A stretch of 64,000 nt of DNA, from assembly GCF_001677475.2 (NCBI RefSeq), contig NZ_CP015229.1; one strand, written 5' to 3'. Origin of the DNA: Escherichia coli. GTDB lineage: Bacteria > Pseudomonadota > Gammaproteobacteria > Enterobacterales > Enterobacteriaceae. Within the stretch, counting starts at the first letter, position 1. Each line of letters begins with the position of its first letter. The notes beneath the pieces are model-generated. The model was not told where the DNA came from, searched no databases, and saw only the letters and a program-made list of their open reading frames with translations. Both the position numbers and the translations under genes were made by a program. Positions 6,433 through 18,630 of this stretch are shown here, one piece after another.

Positions 6433-6613
6433 AAGAAATCCTTTCTTAGAGAATTATTGAGGTCCGGTATCATACCGATTGCAATAATGAAATAAGAGCA
6501 AACGAAGAAACTTTCAGAATTAGTCCCGGCGGCGCAGAAAATTTTGCTATTCGCCTCGCAAGAACGGAGAGCCGTCGATTGACACTAAGGGCGGAGTGAC
6601 ATAATTTCAGGAG

Positions 6614-6758
6614 TGAGGGTTAGGGAGAGGTTTCCCCCTCCCCCTGGTGTTCTTAGTAAGCCTGGAAGCTAATCACTAAGAGTATCACCAGTATGATGAC
6701 GTGCTTCATCATAACCCTTTCCTTATTAAAAGCCCTCTTCTCCGGGAGAGGCTTTCCC
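6614..6758 (+). ncRNA. sibA: Sib antitoxin sRNA antisense to ibs copy 1 (ends approximate)
   Basis: Sigma70-like promoter TTGACA (6579-6584), 17-nt spacer, TAATTT (6602-6607) on the plus strand; imperfect GC-rich hairpin plus short T-run at ~6731-6758; fully antisense to the ibs ORF. Confidence 0.6.
6653..6712 (-). CDS. ibsA: Ibs type I toxin, 19 aa (MMKHVIILVILLVISFQAY)
   Basis: Reverse complement of 6653..6712 translates to MMKHVIILVILLVISFQAY plus TAA; this matches the IbsA peptide as I recall it. Below the 60-aa track cutoff. Confidence 0.8.
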   Translation of the reverse strand: MMKHVIILVILLVISFQAY

Positions 6759-6948
6759 GTTTCAGCGTCCCGCTGAAATCGTCGGCTTACCTCCTTTCGC
6801 CCTGAATGCAGTCTATCGCTAACGCGTGAACAAAATAGTTTCCTCTGTGATTATTGCGTAACGACTCGCAAAGAATATTTGCTGGCAGGATCGCAGACTG
6901 CAAAGCCTGCAGATTGACAATCTTATCGTGAAGGCATACTTTCAGGAG

Positions 6949-7092
6949 TGAGGGTAGAGCGGGGGTTCCCCCGCCCTGGTAGTCTTAGTAAGCCGGGAAG
7001 CTTATGACTAAGAGCACCACGATGATGATCCACTTCATCATGACCCTTTCCTTATTTAAGGCCCCTTCCTCGGGAGGGGCTTTCCCGTTTCA
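6949..7092 (+). ncRNA. sibB: Sib antitoxin sRNA antisense to ibs copy 2 (ends approximate)
   Basis: Promoter TTGACA (6914-6919), 17 nt, TACTTT (6937-6942); hairpin gcccct/aggggc at ~7061-7080 followed by cttt. Confidence 0.6.
6985..7041 (-). CDS. ibsB: Ibs type I toxin, 18 aa (MMKWIIIVVLLVISFPAY)
   Basis: Reverse complement translates to MMKWIIIVVLLVISFPAY plus TAA; close to IbsB as I recall it. Confidence 0.75.
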   Translation of the reverse strand: MMKWIIIVVLLVISFPAY

Positions 7093-7276
7093 GCGTCCCG
7101 CTGAAATCATCGGCTTACCTCCTTTCGCCCTGAATGCAGTCTATCGCTGACTTGCGGATAAAATAGTTTCACATGTGATTATTGCGTAGCGTCTCGCAAA
7201 GAATATTTGCTGGCAGGATCGCAGACTGCAAAGCCTGCAGATTGACAATCTTATCGTGAAGGCATACTTTCAGGAG

Positions 7277-7416
7277 TGAGGGTAGAGCGGGGTTTCCCCC
7301 GCCCTGGTAGTCTTAGTAAGCTGGCCAGCTAATGACTAAGAGCACCACGATGATGAGTATCTTCATCATGACCCTTTCCTTATTTAAGACCCCTTCCTCG
7401 GGAGGGGCTTTCCCGT
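7277..7416 (+). ncRNA. Sib antitoxin sRNA antisense to ibs copy 3 (ends approximate)
   Basis: Promoter TTGACA (7242-7247), 17 nt, TACTTT (7265-7270); hairpin ccccttcctcgggagggg at ~7390-7408 followed by ctttcccgttt. Confidence 0.55.
7313..7369 (-). CDS. Ibs type I toxin, 18 aa (MMKILIIVVLLVISWPAY), third copy
   Basis: Reverse complement translates to MMKILIIVVLLVISWPAY plus TAA. Confidence 0.75.
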   Translation of the reverse strand: MMKILIIVVLLVISWPAY

Positions 7417-7576
7417 TTCAGCGTCCCGCTGAAATCGTCGGCTTACCTCCTTTCGCCATGCAAGCAGTCTATCGCTAACGCGTAGATAAAATAGTTTCAT
7501 GTGTTATTACTGGATGCGTGCTCGCAAATGTGCCCGTCATTCAGACGATTCCCGACAGTGTTTCATAATTCCTCCA

Positions 7577-7594
7577 TTTTTCTCCCTTATTGGC
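7577..7594 (+). promoter_or_regulatory. BaeR box upstream of mdtA
   Basis: tttttctcccttattggc closely matches the published BaeR consensus TTTTTCTCCATDATTGGC as I recall it; lies ~55 nt upstream of the mdtA start. Confidence 0.55.
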
Positions 7595-7647
7595 TGGCTA
7601 CACTAGTATCATTCCGCGAAACGTTTCAGGAAGAGAAACTCTTAACG

Positions 7648-8895
7648 ATGAAAGGCAGTTATAAATCCCGTTGGGTAATCGTAATCGTGGTGGTTATCGC
7701 CGCCATCGCCGCATTCTGGTTCTGGCAAGGCCGCAATGACTCCCGGAGTGCAGCCCCAGGGGCGACGAAACAAGCGCAGCAATCGCCAGCGGGTGGTCGC
7801 CGTGGTATGCGTTCCGGCCCATTAGCCCCGGTTCAGGCGGCGACCGCCGTAGAACAGGCAGTTCCGCGTTACCTCACCGGGCTTGGCACCATTACCGCCG
7901 CTAATACTGTTACGGTGCGCAGCCGCGTGGACGGTCAACTGATGGCGTTGCATTTCCAGGAAGGCCAGCAGGTCAAAGCAGGCGATTTATTGGCAGAAAT
8001 TGACCCCAGCCAGTTCAAAGTTGCATTAGCACAAGCCCAGGGCCAACTGGCAAAAGATAAAGCCACGCTTGCCAACGCCCGCCGTGACCTGGCGCGTTAT
8101 CAACAACTGGTAAAAACCAATCTCGTCTCCCGCCAGGAGCTGGATGCCCAACAAGCGCTGGTCAGTGAAACCGAAGGCACCATTAAGGCTGATGAAGCAA
8201 GCGTCGCCAGCGCACAGCTGCAACTCGACTGGAGCCGTATTACCGCACCAGTCGATGGTCGCGTTGGTCTCAAGCAGGTTGATGTTGGTAACCAAATCTC
8301 CAGTGGTGATACCACCGGGATTGTGGTGATCACCCAGACGCATCCTATCGATTTGCTCTTTACCCTGCCGGAAAGCGATATCGCTACCGTCGTGCAGGCG
8401 CAAAAAGCCGGGAAACCGCTGGTGGTAGAAGCCTGGGATCGCACCAATTCAAAGAAATTAAGCGAAGGCACGCTGTTAAGTCTCGATAACCAAATCGATG
8501 CCACAACCGGTACGATTAAAGTGAAAGCACGCTTTAATAATCAGGATGATGCGCTGTTTCCCAATCAGTTTGTTAACGCGCGCATGTTAGTCGACACCGA
8601 ACAAAACGCCGTAGTGATCCCAACAGCCGCCCTGCAAATGGGCAATGAAGGCCATTTTGTCTGGGTGCTGAATAGCGAAAACAAGGTCAGCAAACATCTG
8701 GTGACGCCGGGCATTCAGGACAGTCAGAAAGTGGTGATCCGTGCAGGTATTTCTGCGGGCGATCGCGTGGTGACAGACGGCATTGATCGCCTGACCGAAG
8801 GGGCGAAAGTGGAAGTGGTGGAAGCCCAGAGCGCCACTACTCCGGAAGAGAAAGCCACCAGCCGCGAATACGCGAAAAAAGGAGCACGCTCCTGA
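7648..8895 (+). CDS. mdtA: RND efflux membrane fusion protein
   Basis: Track ORF 7501..8895; ATG at 7648 gives 415 aa starting [26 protein letters not shown] (signal anchor). Stop overlaps the mdtB start. Confidence 0.9.
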
Positions 8896-11800
8896 TGCAG
8901 GTGTTACCCCCGAGCAGCACAGGCGGCCCGTCGCGCCTGTTTATTATGCGTCCTGTCGCCACCACGCTGCTGATGGTGGCGATCTTACTCGCCGGGATTA
9001 TCGGTTATCGCGCCCTGCCCGTTTCGGCGCTGCCGGAAGTGGACTATCCGACCATTCAGGTGGTCACGCTCTACCCAGGTGCCAGCCCGGATGTCATGAC
9101 CTCTGCCGTTACCGCGCCGCTCGAACGCCAGTTCGGGCAGATGTCCGGCCTGAAACAGATGTCGTCGCAAAGTTCCGGCGGTGCGTCAGTTATCACTTTG
9201 CAGTTCCAGCTAACATTACCGCTCGATGTCGCCGAGCAGGAAGTGCAGGCCGCGATTAACGCTGCGACCAACTTGTTGCCGAGCGATCTGCCTAACCCGC
9301 CGGTTTACAGCAAAGTGAACCCGGCAGATCCGCCGATCATGACGCTCGCCGTCACCTCAACCGCCATGCCGATGACGCAAGTGGAAGATATGGTGGAAAC
9401 CCGCGTCGCGCAGAAAATCTCGCAGATTTCCGGTGTCGGCCTGGTGACGCTTTCCGGCGGGCAGCGTCCGGCTGTTCGCGTCAAACTTAACGCTCAGGCG
9501 ATTGCCGCCCTCGGCCTGACCAGCGAAACCGTGCGCACCGCCATTACCGGCGCTAACGTCAACTCGGCAAAAGGTAGCCTCGACGGCCCTTCCCGTGCGG
9601 TCACGCTTTCCGCGAACGACCAGATGCAATCCGCCGAAGAGTATCGCCAGCTGATCATCGCCTACCAGAACGGCGCACCGATTCGTCTGGGCGATGTCGC
9701 AACTGTAGAGCAAGGTGCAGAAAACAGCTGGCTCGGCGCGTGGGCGAACAAAGAACAGGCCATTGTGATGAATGTTCAGCGCCAGCCCAGTGCTAACATT
9801 ATCTCCACCGCCGACAGCATCCGGCAGATGCTGCCACAGCTCACCGAAAGTCTGCCGAAATCGGTGAAGGTAACGGTACTTTCTGACCGCACCACCAATA
9901 TTCGCGCATCCGTCGATGATACTCAGTTTGAATTGATGATGGCTATCGCGCTGGTAGTCATGATTATCTACCTGTTTTTACGCAATATTCCGGCGACCAT
10001 CATTCCCGGTGTTGCCGTGCCGCTGTCGTTAATCGGCACTTTTGCGGTTATGGTGTTTCTCGATTTTTCAATCAATAACCTGACGCTGATGGCGTTAACT
10101 ATCGCCACCGGATTCGTGGTCGATGACGCCATCGTGGTGATCGAAAACATTTCCCGCTATATCGAAAAAGGCGAAAAACCGCTGGCGGCGGCGCTCAAAG
10201 GCGCGGGTGAGATCGGCTTTACCATTATCTCGCTGACCTTCTCGCTGATTGCGGTGTTGATCCCACTGCTGTTTATGGGCGATATCGTCGGGCGATTGTT
10301 CCGCGAATTTGCTATTACTCTGGCGGTAGCGATTTTGATCTCAGCGGTGGTGTCGCTGACCCTGACACCGATGATGTGCGCGCGGATGCTCAGCCAGGAG
10401 TCGTTGCGTAAACAGAACCGCTTCTCCCGTGCCTCGGAAAAAATGTTCGACAGGATAATCGCCGCCTATGGTCGTGGACTGGCGAAAGTGCTGAATCATC
10501 CGTGGCTGACCTTAAGCGTGGCGCTCAGCACGCTGCTGCTTAGCGTACTGCTGTGGGTGTTCATTCCGAAAGGTTTCTTCCCGGTACAGGACAACGGCAT
10601 TATTCAGGGCACCTTGCAGGCACCGCAATCCAGCTCCTTTGCCAATATGGCCCAGCGGCAACGCCAGGTCGCGGATGTGATTTTACAAGATCCGGCAGTG
10701 CAAAGCCTGACCTCATTTGTTGGCGTTGATGGCACTAACCCGTCGCTGAACAGTGCGCGTTTACAGATCAACCTCAAACCGTTGGATGAACGTGATGATC
10801 GGGTGCAAAAAGTCATCACCCGTCTGCAAACGGCGGTGGATAAAGTGCCGGGCGTCGATCTCTTCTTGCAACCAACGCAGGACCTGACCATCGATACTCA
10901 GGTCAGCCGCACCCAGTACCAGTTTACCTTGCAGGCCACGTCACTGGATGCGCTCAGTACCTGGGTGCCGCAGCTCATGGAAAAACTCCAGCAATTGCCA
11001 CAGCTTTCTGATGTCTCCAGCGACTGGCAGGACAAAGGGCTGGTGGCGTATGTCAATGTTGATCGCGACAGCGCCAGCCGTCTGGGGATCAGCATGGCGG
11101 ATGTCGATAACGCCCTGTACAACGCGTTTGGTCAGCGACTGATTTCCACTATTTATACTCAGGCTAACCAGTATCGCGTGGTGCTGGAACACAACACCGA
11201 AAATACCCCAGGCCTCGCGGCGCTGGATACCATTCGCCTGACCAGCAGCGACGGTGGCGTGGTGCCGTTAAGCTCAATTGCCAAAATTGAGCAGCGTTTT
11301 GCGCCACTTTCCATCAACCATCTGGATCAGTTCCCGGTAACGACCATCTCCTTTAACGTGCCGGATAACTATTCGCTGGGCGATGCGGTGCAGGCGATTA
11401 TGGACACCGAAAAGACGCTGAATCTACCGGTGGATATCACCACGCAGTTCCAGGGCAGCACCCTCGCCTTCCAGTCGGCGCTTGGCAGCACTGTCTGGCT
11501 GATTGTCGCGGCGGTGGTGGCGATGTATATCGTGCTCGGCATTCTGTACGAGAGCTTTATTCACCCGATCACCATTCTCTCGACGCTACCCACCGCAGGG
11601 GTCGGCGCGCTGCTGGCATTAATGATTGCCGGTAGCGAACTGGATGTGATTGCGATTATCGGCATTATTTTGCTGATCGGTATCGTGAAGAAGAACGCCA
11701 TCATGATGATCGACTTCGCGCTGGCTGCTGAGCGTGAGCAAGGCATGTCGCCGCGCGATGCAATCTACCAGGCTTGTCTGTTGCGTTTTCGTCCGATCCT

Positions 11801-12017
11801 GATGACCACTCTGGCGGCACTGCTTGGCGCGCTGCCGCTGATGTTGAGTACCGGGGTCGGCGCGGAACTGCGTCGTCCGTTAGGTATCGGCATGGTCGGC
11901 GGTCTGATTGTCAGCCAGGTGCTGACGCTGTTTACCACGCCGGTGATTTATTTGCTGTTCGACCGCCTGGCATTGTGGACCAAAAGCCGCTTTGCCCGTC
12001 ATGAAGAGGAGGCGTAA
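8895..12017 (+). CDS. mdtB: RND multidrug efflux transporter subunit
   Basis: 1040-aa ORF with 12-TM RND architecture; follows mdtA with ATGA-type overlap. Confidence 0.9.
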
Positions 12018-15000
12018 GTGAAGTTTTTTGCCCTCTTCATTTACCGCCCGGTGGCGACGATTTTACTGTCGGTCGCCATTACCCTTTGCGGCATACTGGG
12101 CTTCCGTATGCTGCCGGTCGCCCCGCTGCCGCAGGTCGATTTTCCGGTGATTATGGTCAGCGCCTCGCTGCCCGGTGCGTCACCTGAAACAATGGCGTCT
12201 TCCGTTGCCACGCCGCTGGAGCGCTCACTTGGGCGCATTGCCGGAGTCAGCGAAATGACCTCCAGCAGTTCGCTCGGCAGCACGCGGATTATTTTGCAGT
12301 TTGATTTTGACCGGGATATCAACGGCGCAGCGCGTGATGTGCAGGCGGCGATCAACGCTGCACAAAGTTTGCTGCCCAGCGGGATGCCAAGCCGTCCGAC
12401 CTATCGCAAAGCGAACCCGTCGGATGCGCCAATTATGATCCTGACGCTAACCTCCGATACTTATTCGCAAGGTGAACTGTACGATTTCGCCTCAACACAG
12501 CTTGCCCCGACGATTGCGCAAATCGACGGTGTCGGTGATGTCGATGTTGGCGGCAGCTCGCTGCCCGCCGTGCGCGTCGGGCTGAATCCGCAGGCGCTGT
12601 TTAATCAGGGCGTATCGCTGGACGACGTACGCACTGCCATCAGCAATGCCAACGTGCGTAAACCGCAGGGGGCGCTGGAAGATGGCACTCACCGCTGGCA
12701 GATCCAGACCAATGATGAGCTAAAAACCGCCGCTGAATATCAGCCGTTGATTATTCATTACAACAACGGCGGCGCGGTTCGTCTGGGTGATGTGGCGACG
12801 GTGACAGACTCGGTGCAGGATGTGCGCAACGCCGGGATGACCAACGCCAAACCGGCTATTTTGCTGATGATCCGCAAGCTGCCGGAAGCCAATATTATCC
12901 AGACGGTTGACAGCATCCGGGCAAAATTACCGGAGTTGCAGGAGACCATTCCGGCGGCGATTGATCTGCAAATTGCCCAGGATCGCTCCCCCACCATTCG
13001 CGCCTCGCTGGAAGAAGTCGAGCAAACGCTGATTATCTCGGTGGCGCTGGTGATTCTGGTGGTGTTTTTATTCCTGCGCTCGGGTCGCGCCACTATTATT
13101 CCCGCCGTTGCGGTGCCGGTTTCGCTGATTGGTACGTTTGCGGCGATGTACCTGTGCGGTTTCAGTCTCAATAATCTTTCGTTAATGGCGCTCACCATCG
13201 CTACTGGTTTCGTGGTGGATGACGCCATCGTAGTGCTGGAAAACATTGCCCGTCATCTGGAAGCGGGGATGAAACCGCTACAGGCCGCGCTGCAAGGCAC
13301 CCGTGAAGTCGGATTTACGGTGCTGTCGATGAGTCTGTCACTGGTGGCGGTGTTCCTGCCGCTGCTGTTGATGGGCGGATTGCCGGGCCGACTGTTACGC
13401 GAATTTGCCGTGACGCTTTCAGTCGCCATTGGGATTTCGTTGCTGGTTTCCCTCACGCTAACGCCGATGATGTGCGGCTGGATGCTAAAAGCCAGCAAGC
13501 CGCGCGAGCAAAAGCGACTGCGTGGTTTTGGTCGCATGTTGGTAGCCCTGCAACAAGGCTATGGCAAGTCGCTGAAATGGGTGCTCAATCATACCCGTCT
13601 GGTTGGCGTGGTGCTGCTTGGCACCATTGCGCTGAATATCTGGCTATATATCTCGATCCCGAAAACCTTCTTCCCGGAGCAGGACACCGGCGTGTTGATG
13701 GGCGGGATACAGGCGGATCAGAGTATTTCGTTTCAGGCAATGCGCGGCAAATTGCAGGATTTCATGAAAATTATCCGTGACGATCCGGCAGTGGATAATG
13801 TCACCGGATTTACCGGCGGTTCGCGAGTGAACAGCGGGATGATGTTTATCACCCTCAAGCCACGCGACGAACGCAGCGAAACGGCGCAGCAAATTATCGA
13901 CCGTCTGCGGGTGAAGCTGGCGAAAGAACCGGGGGCGAATCTGTTCCTGATGGCGGTACAGGATATTCGCGTTGGTGGGCGTCAGTCGAACGCCAGCTAC
14001 CAGTACACGTTGTTATCCGACGACCTGGCGGCACTGCGCGAATGGGAGCCGAAAATCCGCAAAAAACTGGCGACGTTGCCAGAATTGGCGGACGTGAACT
14101 CCGATCAGCAGGATAACGGCGCGGAGATGAATCTGGTTTACGATCGCGACACCATGGCGCGGCTGGGAATCGACGTGCAGGCCGCCAACAGCCTGTTAAA
14201 TAACGCCTTCGGTCAGCGGCAAATCTCGACCATTTACCAGCCGATGAACCAGTACAAAGTGGTGATGGAAGTGGATCCGCGCTATACCCAGGACATCAGC
14301 GCGCTGGAAAAAATGTTCGTTATCAATAACGAAGGAAAAGCGATCCCACTGTCGTATTTCGCTAAATGGCAACCGGCGAATGCCCCGCTGTCGGTGAATC
14401 ATCAGGGATTATCGGCGGCCTCGACCATCTCGTTCAACCTGCCGACCGGAAAATCGCTCTCGGACGCCAGTGCGGCGATCGATCGCGCAATGACCCAGCT
14501 TGGTGTGCCTTCGACGGTGCGCGGCAGTTTTGCCGGAACAGCGCAGGTGTTCCAGGAGACGATGAACTCACAGGTGATCCTGATTATCGCCGCCATCGCC
14601 ACGGTCTATATCGTGCTGGGTATCCTTTACGAGAGTTACGTACATCCGTTGACGATTCTCTCCACCCTGCCCTCGGCGGGCGTTGGGGCGCTGTTGGCGC
14701 TGGAGCTGTTCAATGCCCCGTTCAGCCTAATCGCCCTAATAGGGATCATGCTATTAATCGGCATCGTGAAGAAAAACGCCATTATGATGGTCGATTTTGC
14801 GCTTGAAGCCCAACGGCACGGTAACCTCACGCCGCAGGAAGCTATTTTCCAGGCCTGTCTGCTGCGTTTTCGCCCGATTATGATGACTACCCTGGCGGCG
14901 CTGTTTGGCGCGCTGCCGCTGGTATTGTCGGGCGGTGACGGTTCGGAGCTGCGGCAACCCCTGGGGATCACCATTGTCGGCGGTCTGGTAATGAGCCAGC

Positions 15001-15095
15001 TTCTGACGCTGTATACCACACCGGTGGTGTATCTCTTTTTCGACCGTCTGCGGCTGCGTTTTTCGCGTAAACCTAAACAAACGGTAACCGAGTAA
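12018..15095 (+). CDS. mdtC: RND multidrug efflux transporter subunit
   Basis: 1025-aa ORF, paralogous to mdtB, immediately adjacent (GTG start at 12018). Confidence 0.9.
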
Positions 15096-16511
15096 ATGAC
15101 AGATCTTCCCGACAGCACCCGCTGGCAATTGTGGATTGTGGCTTTCGGCTTCTTTATGCAGTCGCTGGACACCACCATCGTAAACACTGCCCTTCCCTCA
15201 ATGGCACAAAGCCTCGGGGAAAGTCCGTTGCATATGCACATGGTCATTGTCTCTTATGTACTGACCGTGGCGGTGATGCTGCCCGCCAGCGGCTGGCTGG
15301 CGGACAAAGTCGGCGTGCGCAATATTTTCTTTACCGCCATCGTGCTGTTTACTCTCGGTTCACTGTTTTGCGCGCTTTCCGGCACGCTGAACGAACTGTT
15401 GCTGGCACGCGCGTTACAGGGCGTTGGCGGTGCGATGATGGTGCCGGTCGGCAGGTTAACGGTGATGAAAATCGTACCGCGCGAGCAATATATGGCGGCA
15501 ATGACCTTTGTCACGTTACCCGGTCAGGTCGGTCCGCTGCTCGGTCCGGCGCTCGGCGGTCTGCTGGTGGAATACGCGTCGTGGCACTGGATCTTTTTGA
15601 TCAACATTCCGGTGGGAATTATCGGTGCGATCGCCACATTGATGTTAATGCCGAACTACACCATGCAGACGCGGCGCTTTGATCTTTCCGGCTTTTTATT
15701 GCTGGCGGTTGGCATGGCGGTATTAACCCTGGCGCTGGACGGCAGTAAAGGTACAGGTTTATCGCCGCTGGCGATTGCTGGCCTGGTCGCAGTTGGCGTG
15801 GTGGCACTGGTGCTTTATCTGCTGCACGCCAGAAATAACAACCGCGCCCTGTTCAGTCTGAAACTGTTCCGTACTCGTTCCTTTTCGCTGGGCCTGGCGG
15901 GGAGTTTTGCCGGACGTATTGGCAGTGGCATGTTGCCCTTTATGACACCGGTTTTCCTGCAAATTGGCCTTGGCTTCTCACCGTTTCATGCCGGACTGAT
16001 GATGATCCCGATGGTGCTTGGCAGCATGGGAATGAAGCGAATTGTTGTTCAGGTGGTGAATCGCTTTGGCTACCGTCGGGTACTGGTAGCGACCACGCTG
16101 GGTCTGTCGCTGGTCACCCTGTTGTTTATGACTACCGCTCTGTTGGGCTGGTACTACGTTTTGCCGTTCGTCCTGTTTTTACAAGGGATGGTCAACTCGA
16201 CCCGTTTCTCCTCCATGAACACCCTGACGCTGAAAGATCTCCCGGACAATCTGGCGAGCAGCGGCAACAGTCTGCTGTCGATGATTATGCAATTGTCGAT
16301 GAGTATCGGCGTCACAATCGCCGGGCTGTTGCTGGGACTTTTTGGTTCGCAGCATGTCAGCGTCGACAGCGGCACCACACAAACCGTCTTTATGTACACC
16401 TGGCTTAGCATGGCGTTTATCATCGCCCTTCCGGCGTTCATCTTTGCCAGAGTGCCGAACGATACGCATCAAAATGTAGCTATTTCGCGGCGAAAAAGGA
16501 GCGCGCAATGA
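15096..16511 (+). CDS. mdtD: MFS-family transporter
   Basis: 471-aa ORF with multiple hydrophobic segments, directly downstream of mdtC. Confidence 0.85.
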
Positions 16512-17911
16512 AGTTTTGGCGACCCGGTATTACCGGCAAACTGTTTCTGGCGATTTTCGCCACCTGCATTGTCTTGCTGATCAGTATGCACTGGGCGGTG
16601 CGTATCAGTTTTGAGCGTGGCTTTATTGATTACATCAAGCATGGTAATGAACAGCGATTACAACTGTTAAGTGATGCGCTTGGCGAGCAGTATGCGCAAC
16701 ATGGCAACTGGCGCTTCCTGCGCAACAATGATCGCTTTGTCTTTCAGATCCTGCGTTCATTTGAACACGATAATTCGGAAGATAAACCCGGCCCGGGTAT
16801 GCCACCACACGGCTGGCGTACTCAGTTCTGGGTGGTTGATCAAAACAACAAAGTGCTGGTTGGTCCGCGAGCGCCGATTCCACCTGACGGTACACGGCGA
16901 CCCATTCTGGTCAACGGTGCGGAAGTGGGCGCGGTGATTGCCTCCCCCGTTGAGCGGCTGACCCGCAATACTGATATCAATTTCGATAAACAACAACGGC
17001 AAACCAGCTGGCTGATTGTCGCCCTGGCAACGTTACTCGCGGCACTCGCCACTTTTCTGCTGGCGCGCGGTTTGCTGGCACCGGTAAAACGACTTGTCGA
17101 TGGCACGCACAAACTGGCGGCAGGCGATTTCACTACCCGCGTAACGCCCACCAGTGAAGATGAACTGGGCAAACTGGCGCAAGACTTCAACCAGCTTGCC
17201 AGCACGCTGGAGAAAAACCAGCAAATGCGGCGCGATTTTATGGCCGATATTTCTCACGAACTGCGTACGCCATTAGCGGTGCTGCGCGGTGAACTGGAAG
17301 CCATTCAGGATGGCGTGCGCAAATTCACGCCGGAGACGGTGGCGTCTTTACAGGCGGAGGTCGGTACACTGACCAAACTGGTTGACGATCTTCATCAGTT
17401 GTCGATGTCTGATGAAGGCGCTCTCGCCTATCAAAAAGCACCGGTAGATTTGATCCCACTGCTGGAAGTGGCGGGCGGCGCATTTCGCGAACGATTTGCC
17501 AGCCGTGGCCTGAAACTGCAATTTTCCCTGCCAGACAGTATCACCGTATTTGGCGATCGCGACCGTTTAATGCAGTTATTCAATAACTTACTTGAAAACA
17601 GCCTGCGCTACACTGACAGCGGCGGCAGCCTGAAAATCTCTGCCGAGCAGCACGACAAAACGGTGCGCCTGACCTTTGCCGACAGTGCGCCAGGTGTCAG
17701 TGACGATCAGCTACAAAAATTGTTTGAACGTTTTTATCGCACCGAAGGTTCCCGCAACCGCGCCAGCGGCGGTTCCGGGCTGGGGCTGGCGATTTGCCTG
17801 AACATTGTTGAAGCACATAATGGCCGCATTATTGCTGCCCATTCGCCTTTTGGCGGGGTAAGCATTACAGTAGAGTTACCGCTGGAACGGGATTTACAGA
17901 GAGAAGTATGA
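16508..17911 (+). CDS. baeS: Envelope-stress sensor histidine kinase
   Basis: 467-aa ORF with H-box [13 protein letters not shown] region and GSGLGLAI G2 box; overlaps mdtD stop. Confidence 0.9.
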
Positions 17912-18630
17912 CCGAGTTACCAATCGACGAAAACACACCGCGTATTTTGATCGTGGAAGATGAACCGAAGCTGGGGCAGTTGCTCATTGATTATCTGCGT
18001 GCTGCGAGCTATGCGCCGACGCTTATCAGCCACGGCGATCAGGTACTGCCGTATGTGCGCCAGACACCACCGGATCTGATCCTGTTGGATCTGATGCTCC
18101 CTGGCACCGATGGCTTGACGCTGTGCCGGGAAATTCGTCGTTTTTCTGACATTCCTATCGTGATGGTGACGGCAAAAATCGAAGAGATCGACCGCCTGCT
18201 CGGACTGGAGATTGGCGCAGATGATTATATCTGTAAGCCGTACAGCCCACGGGAAGTGGTAGCGCGCGTCAAAACCATTTTGCGCCGTTGCAAACCGCAG
18301 CGCGAGTTGCAGCAACAGGATGCTGAAAGCCCGTTGATTATCGACGAAGGTCGTTTTCAGGCTTCATGGCGTGGTAAAATGCTTGACCTGACGCCTGCGG
18401 AATTTCGTCTGCTGAAAACGCTCTCTCATGAACCAGGAAAAGTGTTCTCCCGCGAGCAATTGCTCAATCATCTTTATGACGACTACCGCGTAGTAACCGA
18501 CCGCACCATCGACAGCCACATTAAAAACCTGCGCCGCAAGCTGGAATCTCTCGACGCCGAACAGTCATTTATCCGCGCCGTTTACGGCGTTGGTTACCGC
18601 TGGGAAGCCGACGCCTGCCGCATCGTTTAG
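17908..18630 (+). CDS. baeR: OmpR-family response regulator
   Basis: 240-aa ORF with receiver domain ([18 protein letters not shown]) and winged-helix C-terminus; overlaps baeS stop. Confidence 0.9.

Follow-up and report, generated by a model that had tools for sequence, protein, structure and literature searches.

The window, by which we mean the whole 64,000-nucleotide stretch of Escherichia coli DNA that was analysed, contains the six genes of mdtABCD-baeSR, which encode an RND efflux system, an MFS transporter, and the two-component system BaeSR (Table 1). All six open reading frames clear, by a wide margin, the curated NCBIfam cut-offs of MdtA, MdtB, MdtC, MdtD, BaeS, and BaeR. In a profile search BaeR also matches the PhoB, OmpR, and CreB models, and its solved structure, 4B09, is of the protein without DNA. 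The intergenic gap from mdtA to baeR is zero at all five junctions. A first-pass annotation of this DNA had described the junctions as overlapping, which holds for mdtA/mdtB, mdtD/baeS, and baeS/baeR, while mdtB/mdtC and mdtC/mdtD only abut. The 1.3 kb around the BaeR box upstream of mdtA matches the yegL / sib-ibs / mdtA region in more than 5,200 complete E. coli genomes.

Table 1. Features of the mdtA promoter and the mdtABCD-baeSR operon in the window
Feature	Position	Strand	Sequence or parts	Remarks
U half-site	7560-7570	+	GTTTCATAATT; core TTYCAT 7561-7566	11 bp upstream of D; 1.7-2.0 bits in most columns
D half-site	7571-7581	+	CCTCCATTTTT; core CTCCAT 7572-7577	most conserved element; 1.6-2.0 bits per column
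BaeR box (P register), 18-mer	7577-7594	+	tttttctcccttattggc; TTTTT, core CTCCCT (7582-7587), T, tail ATTGGC (7589-7594)	published mdtA-promoter box
Invariant block	7598-7613	+	CTAMACTAGTATCATT	two overlapping -10 candidates: TACACT (7599-7604), TATCAT (7607-7612)
Equivalent of second K-12 BaeR ChIP-exo peak	7604-7630	+		mapped with the offset; covers -10/start region
mdtA, RND periplasmic adaptor	7648-8895	+		first operon gene; NF008589, 722 bits vs cut-off 391
mdtB, RND permease	8895-12017	+		above NCBIfam cut-off; start overlaps mdtA stop by 1 nt
mdtC, RND permease	12018-15095	+		above NCBIfam cut-off; abuts mdtB, no gap
mdtD/iceT, MFS transporter	15096-16511	+		above NCBIfam cut-off; abuts mdtC, no gap
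baeS, sensor kinase	16508-17911	+		above NCBIfam cut-off; 4-nt ATGA overlap with mdtD
baeR, OmpR/PhoB-family response regulator	17908-18630	+		NF007982, 450 bits; 4-nt ATGA overlap with baeS

Three tandem Sib antitoxin RNA genes are found between yegL and mdtA, at 6579-6727, 6914-7056, and 7242-7384 on the plus strand (Rfam RF00113, 138-150 bits), with ibs toxin open reading frames on the minus strand, e.g., at about 7318-7374. K-12 MG1655 has two Sib genes at this place (sibA and sibB) against three here, and in the best-matching E. coli genomes three Ibs toxins are annotated as well. The type I toxin-antitoxin array immediately preceding the mdtA promoter varies in copy number. The sequence flanking a minus-strand transcription start assigned to ibsB matches the window at about 7470-7520 (PMC3415461 supplement). 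An ibs promoter would fire divergently from there, about 130-180 nt ahead of the mdtA ATG, within the intergenic region that also holds the mdtA control elements.

An in-frame ATG at 7528, and also a GTG at 7501, lies upstream of the mdtA start, and the former permits a 40-residue extension of MdtA (7528-7647). MdtA proteins of 455 residues occur in the database clusters P0122 and P0123, the latter with 4769 members. Because such an extension would bury the BaeR operator and the promoter in coding sequence, it is almost certainly a mis-called start. Within the mdtA leader, GTTTCAGGAWGAGA (7623-7636) is conserved across genera at 12-25 nt before the ATG, and the rest of the leader is variable. 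Ribosome-binding sites usually lie closer to the start codon than this element, which may represent an extended version of such a site or a regulatory RNA element.

The BaeR box and published binding in K-12

Envelope stress caused by indole, copper or zinc, tungstate, tannins, or ethanol activates the kinase BaeS, which in turn phosphorylates BaeR. BaeR binds upstream of mdtA and is needed to induce the whole six-gene unit. As the induced unit ends with baeS and baeR, the system is subject to positive autoregulation.

The 18-mer that the first-pass annotation assigned to BaeR is located 54-71 nt upstream of the mdtA ATG, with its 3' end about 53-54 nt before this codon. Nishino et al. 2005 reportedly derived the BaeR motif from the mdtA, spy, and acrD promoters. 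The published 18-bp consensus is TTTTTCTCCATDATTGGC, as quoted in PMC3799227 and PMC3915751, both of which credit Nishino et al. 2005. The 18-mer agrees with it at 17 of 18 positions (the sole mismatch is C for A at position 10), a match whose significance is partly circular, since the published consensus, with its D at position 12, is exactly what results when the mdtA box, the spy box TTTTTCTCCATAATTGGC, and the acrD box TTTTTCTCCACGATTGGC of K-12 are combined, and the mdtA site was evidently among the sequences used to build it. The spy and acrD boxes have TTTTTCTCC...ATTGGC in common with the mdtA 18-mer, with 15 of the 18 positions invariant. The match first reported, at 16 of 18 positions, is real but undercounted by one. 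Neither strand of the 64 kb has another match, even when up to three mismatches are allowed, where 0.17 would be expected by chance; at no more than one mismatch, 100 shuffles gave 0.00 matches. A different BaeR box, the 9-mer TCTNCANAA of Yamamoto et al. 2008 (quoted in PMC3799227), is matched by eye at 7 of 9 positions by TCTCCCTTA (7581-7589), at 6 of 9 by CCTCCATTT (7571-7579), and at 7 of 9 by GTTTCATAA (7560-7568). For the spy box, TCTCCATAA, the agreement is 9 of 9.

Compared with K-12 MG1655, the region 7440-7660 of the window contains three base differences, none of them in 7555-7645, so that the box and the core promoter are identical and experiments performed in K-12 carry over directly. 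Apart from these bases and the three sib/ibs copies instead of two upstream, the K-12 mdtA box is the same site in front of the same operon. Window positions were converted to MG1655 coordinates with an offset of +2146368. Choudhary et al. reported a BaeR ChIP-exo peak upstream of mdtA at 2153931-2153967 (PMC7657598, Data Set S2), which maps to 7563-7599 in the window, with coordinates that may be off by one (0-based vs 1-based), and encloses the 18-mer. A second BaeR peak upstream of mdtA, at 2153972-2153998 (PMC7657598, Data Set S2), probably reflects the region of promoter-bound RNA polymerase.

Expression data from the same study agree with this. In 5% ethanol, deletion of baeR lowered mdtA, mdtB, mdtC, mdtD/iceT, and baeS by log2 4.0, 3.8, 3.6, 3.4, and 4.6, respectively (RNA-seq, PMC7657598), i.e., mdtA through baeS drop about 10-25-fold without baeR under induction. 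In unstimulated cells, the deletion was without effect on mdtA-baeS (PMC7657598). Binding of BaeR to the mdtA promoter has been stated for both E. coli and Salmonella, and an EMSA with Erwinia material indicated that phosphorylation of BaeR improves this binding about 2-fold (PMC4107485). The BaeR site has been called well characterised (PMC3160322). The gapless genes and the published baeS change of log2 -4.6 in the baeR deletion are those of a positively autoregulated two-component operon, which PMC7657598 likewise assigns as mdtABCD-baeSR, and the gapless junctions together with the loss of expression from mdtA through baeS bear out the earlier proposal that BaeSR controls mdtABCD-baeSR as one unit. 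An extra internal promoter for baeSR may exist.

Of 5426 complete E. coli genomes, 5416 carry the 96-nt promoter, 5260 of them with at least 99% identity. Identity with K-12, ChIP-exo, RNA-seq, the gapless junctions, and conservation within E. coli all support the BaeR-box reading, and we consider it highly probable that the 18-mer belongs to a functional BaeR operator. That it resembles the consensus by chance and has no function is scarcely credible. The circularity of the consensus is all that speaks for such a coincidence, and it is opposed by the empty result of the 100 shuffles at one mismatch, by the BaeR ChIP-exo peak over the identical stretch in K-12, and by the near-invariance of the promoter in 5416 E. 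coli genomes. The placement proposed earlier as correct for mdtA control is confirmed by the distance to the ATG and by the position inside the K-12 peak. The 18-mer is the already described BaeR site of the mdtA promoter, and there is nothing new in it.

Conservation of the mdtA promoter in Enterobacteriaceae

The mdtA loci of 80 species from about 25 genera of Enterobacteriaceae were compared, based on MdtA relatives with at least 77% identity. The set is without Salmonella, K. pneumoniae, Erwinia, and more distant genera, and related sequences in it do not count as independent observations; Salmonella MdtA did not appear among the 120 best protein hits either. In 79 of the 80 species the promoter aligned without any indel. 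Two blocks are near-invariant in these 79 species, namely 7561-7581 (GTTTCATAWTTCCTCCATTTTT) and 7598-7613, both with 1.6-2.0 bits. Apart from an invariant T at 7595, the columns of the stretch between them, 7582-7597, reach 0.15-1.0 bits (in Enterobacter this stretch reads CCGCTGTGTTGCCTGA), and the flanking intergenic columns further upstream have 0.05-0.7 bits. Given that the neutral columns are well diverged, constraint is acting on the two conserved blocks.

Only the TTTTT of the box lies in a conserved block. The remaining 13 of its 18 bases (CTCCCTTATTGGC) are kept only in Escherichia and Citrobacter among the 79 species; the core CTCCCT was found in 20 of the 79, all of them Escherichia or Citrobacter, and the tail ATTGGC in four. 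Within these two genera, the top-base frequency is 0.97 in the P core and 0.75 in the tail. For the 56 species outside them, the same register has a mean of 8.0 mismatches to the consensus. The regulator itself is well conserved: baeR is linked to mdtA on the same strand in all 66 informative loci, BaeR proteins from these loci are 86-98% identical, and 83% of the DNA-binding domain is invariant, including one fully invariant stretch that we take, from the fold of the family, to be the recognition helix. Across the 79 species, the 18-mer is thus not conserved wherever BaeR and mdtA are. Low conservation next to a linked and conserved BaeR means that the 18-mer is not the family-wide operator; its membership of the operator in E. 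coli stands. The first-pass annotation was right to call it a BaeR element, as it is the published box, but it is only part of the operator and, judged by conservation, the less ancient part.

The upstream block comprises two half-sites, D and U. The D core is CTCCAT in 75 of the 79 species and CTTCAT in the other four. The U core is TTTCAT in 51 of the 79 and TTCCAT in 19. Together, they form a near-invariant tandem direct repeat, TTYCAT-N5-CTCCAT (7561-7577). If P is included, direct repeats follow each other with a 10-11-bp period (TTTCAT at 7561, CTCCAT at 7572, and CTCCCT at 7582), and the first two are conserved in the 79 species.

A sigma-70-like match, TTCAGA-18-CATAAT, is present at 7540-7569, and its -10 element CATAAT overlaps U. 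As an alternative reading, U could be the -10 element of this upstream promoter. The -35 element of the match is overlapped by ATTCAGACGATTCCCGACAGT (7539-7559), which shows about 1-1.5 bits, and TTC recurs every 9-11 bp, at 7540, 7549, 7562, 7569, and 7580. Additional half-sites for a regulator, curved DNA, or an upstream promoter may be located in the segment 7539-7559.

Core promoter and architecture common to mdtA, spy, and acrD

The two -10 candidates downstream of the box are equally conserved, TAMACT in 78 of 79 species and TAWYAT in all 79, and TATCAT has the best match to a -10 element (5 of 6). Both follow the box, as had been proposed when it was placed just upstream of a plausible -10 element. 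A consensus -35 element is absent 16-18 nt upstream of either candidate. TTGGCT (7590-7595) was rejected as a -35 element, its spacing to every -10 candidate being 3-11 nt, and TAGTAT (7604-7609) is an unlikely -10 element, as some species have TAGTAA or TAGTAC and have lost the final T. The conserved block of 16 nt exceeds the need of a -10 hexamer and contains -10-like hexamers 8 nt apart. Possibilities are that all of 7598-7613 is fixed as a discriminator and start region, or as the site of another factor.

Searches of Cappable-seq supplements yielded no mapped induced mdtA start near the site, and full-text literature searches yielded none either, so all promoter-relative positions given here are inferred. 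In the transcription start table of Kim 2012, the only mdtA start is 646 nt upstream, in the sib/ibs region (PMC3415461 supplement). With a start at 7611, the downstream border of the second ChIP-exo peak (7630) would be at about +20, a slight point in favour of TACACT. We lean slightly towards TACACT, rather than TATCAT, as the -10 element in use.

Explicit coordinate arithmetic in K-12 revealed that the mdtA, spy, and acrD promoters have CTCCAY-N21-TACAST in common. At mdtA, the 21-nt spacing runs from the upstream CTCCAT (7572-7577), i.e., the D core, to TACACT (7599-7604), and D thereby corresponds in position to the spy and acrD boxes. The CTCCCT core of the 18-mer is only 11 nt from TACACT, and the D core is 10 bp further upstream. 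The pattern CTCCAT-N21-TACACT occurs once in the window vs 0.02 expected, and the probability that a promoter has TACA[CG]T at a given position by chance is about 7e-4. At spy, box, spacing, and hexamer are retained in Salmonella and two Citrobacter species, with CTCCAT changed to CTTCAY; the hexamer TACACT is changed to TATACT in Salmonella and Citrobacter, which is nearer to the -10 consensus. The ATTGGC tail is kept at spy in three genera. Second repeats are present at the other two promoters as well: CTCCTT is 11 bp upstream of CTCCAC at acrD, and CTCCAT is 22 bp upstream at spy. The repeats at mdtA are at -11 and +10 by comparison.

The K-12 spy box (MG1655 1825764-1825781, minus strand) falls between published BaeR ChIP-exo peaks at 1825677-1825711 and 1825823-1825843. 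The conserved TACACT/TATACT, 21 nt downstream of this box, is about 118 nt before the spy ATG. This hints at a BaeR-dependent start there, separate from the apparent downstream sigma-70 promoter TTGACG-16-TAATCT recognised by eye.

These data bear on the view that the 18-mer by itself makes up the whole, primary BaeR site, with TATCAT as the active -10 element and with another role for 7561-7581, either as the -10 region of TTCAGA-18-CATAAT or as the site of another regulator such as CpxR, a reported binder here. Several observations fit it: the 17/18 match includes the ATTGGC tail common to spy and acrD, which spy retains in three genera; the ChIP-exo peak at 7563-7599 is roughly centred on the 18-mer; a sigma-70-like match exists at 7540-7569; and TATCAT is both conserved and the best -10 match. 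Yet conservation of 13 of the 18 bases stops at Escherichia and Citrobacter despite an 83% invariant DNA-binding domain and linked baeSR, and the spy/acrD core CTCCAY with its 21-nt spacing to TACAST is found in the upstream element instead. The CpxR variant is further weakened by a search of 7380-7660 for the CpxR consensus GTAAA-N5-GTAAA, which gave no match with up to two mismatches and only four uninformative matches with three. We therefore regard a self-sufficient 18-mer as unlikely, though it deserves serious consideration.

A putative operator of tandem half-sites

Regulators of the PhoB/OmpR type bind head-to-tail to tandem repeats 10-11 bp apart. The mdtA promoter shares two features of such operators, namely a regulator of this family and at least two direct repeats at a 10-11-bp period. 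With high confidence, we interpret 7560-7594 as the BaeR operator of the mdtABCD-baeSR promoter, of which the 18-mer is the promoter-proximal part.

In the proposed model, phosphorylated BaeR would bind head-to-tail to U (7561) and D (7572), and additionally to P (7582) in Escherichia and Citrobacter only. D is 21 nt upstream of TACACT, so BaeR bound there would be at about -40 (D at about -39 to -34), over the missing -35 element. By analogy with PhoB, BaeR may then recruit the sigma-70 RNA polymerase through contact with sigma-70, with transcription starting near 7611. On the present sequence comparison, the chances are about even that U and D are the ancestral core, to which P was added as a lineage-specific half-site. 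Somewhat more doubtful is the stronger version, in which the textbook mdtA box would be a recent accessory of Escherichia and Citrobacter and the ancestral operator would be TTYCAT-N5-CTCCAT, placed 21 nt from TAMACT as at spy and acrD.

The ChIP-exo peak covers D, P, and only part of U, so occupancy of D and P fits E. coli at least as well as occupancy of U and D. Judging from the borders of this peak (7563-7599), BaeR appears to occupy P in E. coli. The published consensus and the ATTGGC tail common with spy and acrD favour the P register in this species. If TACACT is the -10 element, P falls within the -35/-10 spacer, where an activator would be awkwardly placed. P might be a modulatory site, confined to Escherichia and Citrobacter, that tunes or limits output at high levels of phosphorylated BaeR and damps the positive feedback. 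Its core would be at about -29 to -24 with TACACT as the -10 element, and it is clade-restricted and yet conserved there in the core (0.97), less so in the tail (0.75). However, the published data give only net BaeR-dependent activation, and the -10 assignment behind this idea is itself tentative; we consider such a damping role improbable. The preferred reading remains that of an activating operator in which P is the promoter-proximal part.

Known systems offer parallels. The pho box of PhoB and other OmpR-type operators are bound by the same regulator family, and the mdtA repeats have the same 10-11-bp period and A/T-rich spacers. As in the pho box, the mdtA repeats would be at the -35 position of a promoter without a good -35 element. 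The repeat units differ, with CTGTCAT in the pho box vs TYCAT/CTCCAT at mdtA. A closer likeness is the DzrR box of Dickeya and Burkholderia, where a DzrR footprint covers two direct CTCCAT repeats (PMC10052836). As at mdtA, an OmpR-family regulator controls an RND efflux operon there via a CTCCAT direct repeat of about 11 bp (PMC10052836). Unlike BaeR, DzrR is AdeR-like, apparently independent of phosphorylation, and directed at other target genes, and baeR is dispensable for the DzrR-controlled efflux promoter in that organism (PMC10052836).

That reading of the sequence alone recovered a real operator is of modest value as a positive control. What may be new is a modest refinement: the mdtA operator has its conserved core 10 bp upstream of the canonical box, and this core has a fixed-distance architecture in common with spy and acrD. 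If the stronger version of the model is true, the BaeR consensus and position-weight matrix were set on the wrong register at mdtA and under-predict sites outside E. coli. The comparison has a small practical value for the prediction of BaeR regulons: scanning Klebsiella, Enterobacter, and other Enterobacteriaceae with the E. coli 18-mer would fail to find even the site at mdtA, which the CTCCAT tandem-repeat core combined with a fixed distance to the -10 element would detect in those bacteria.
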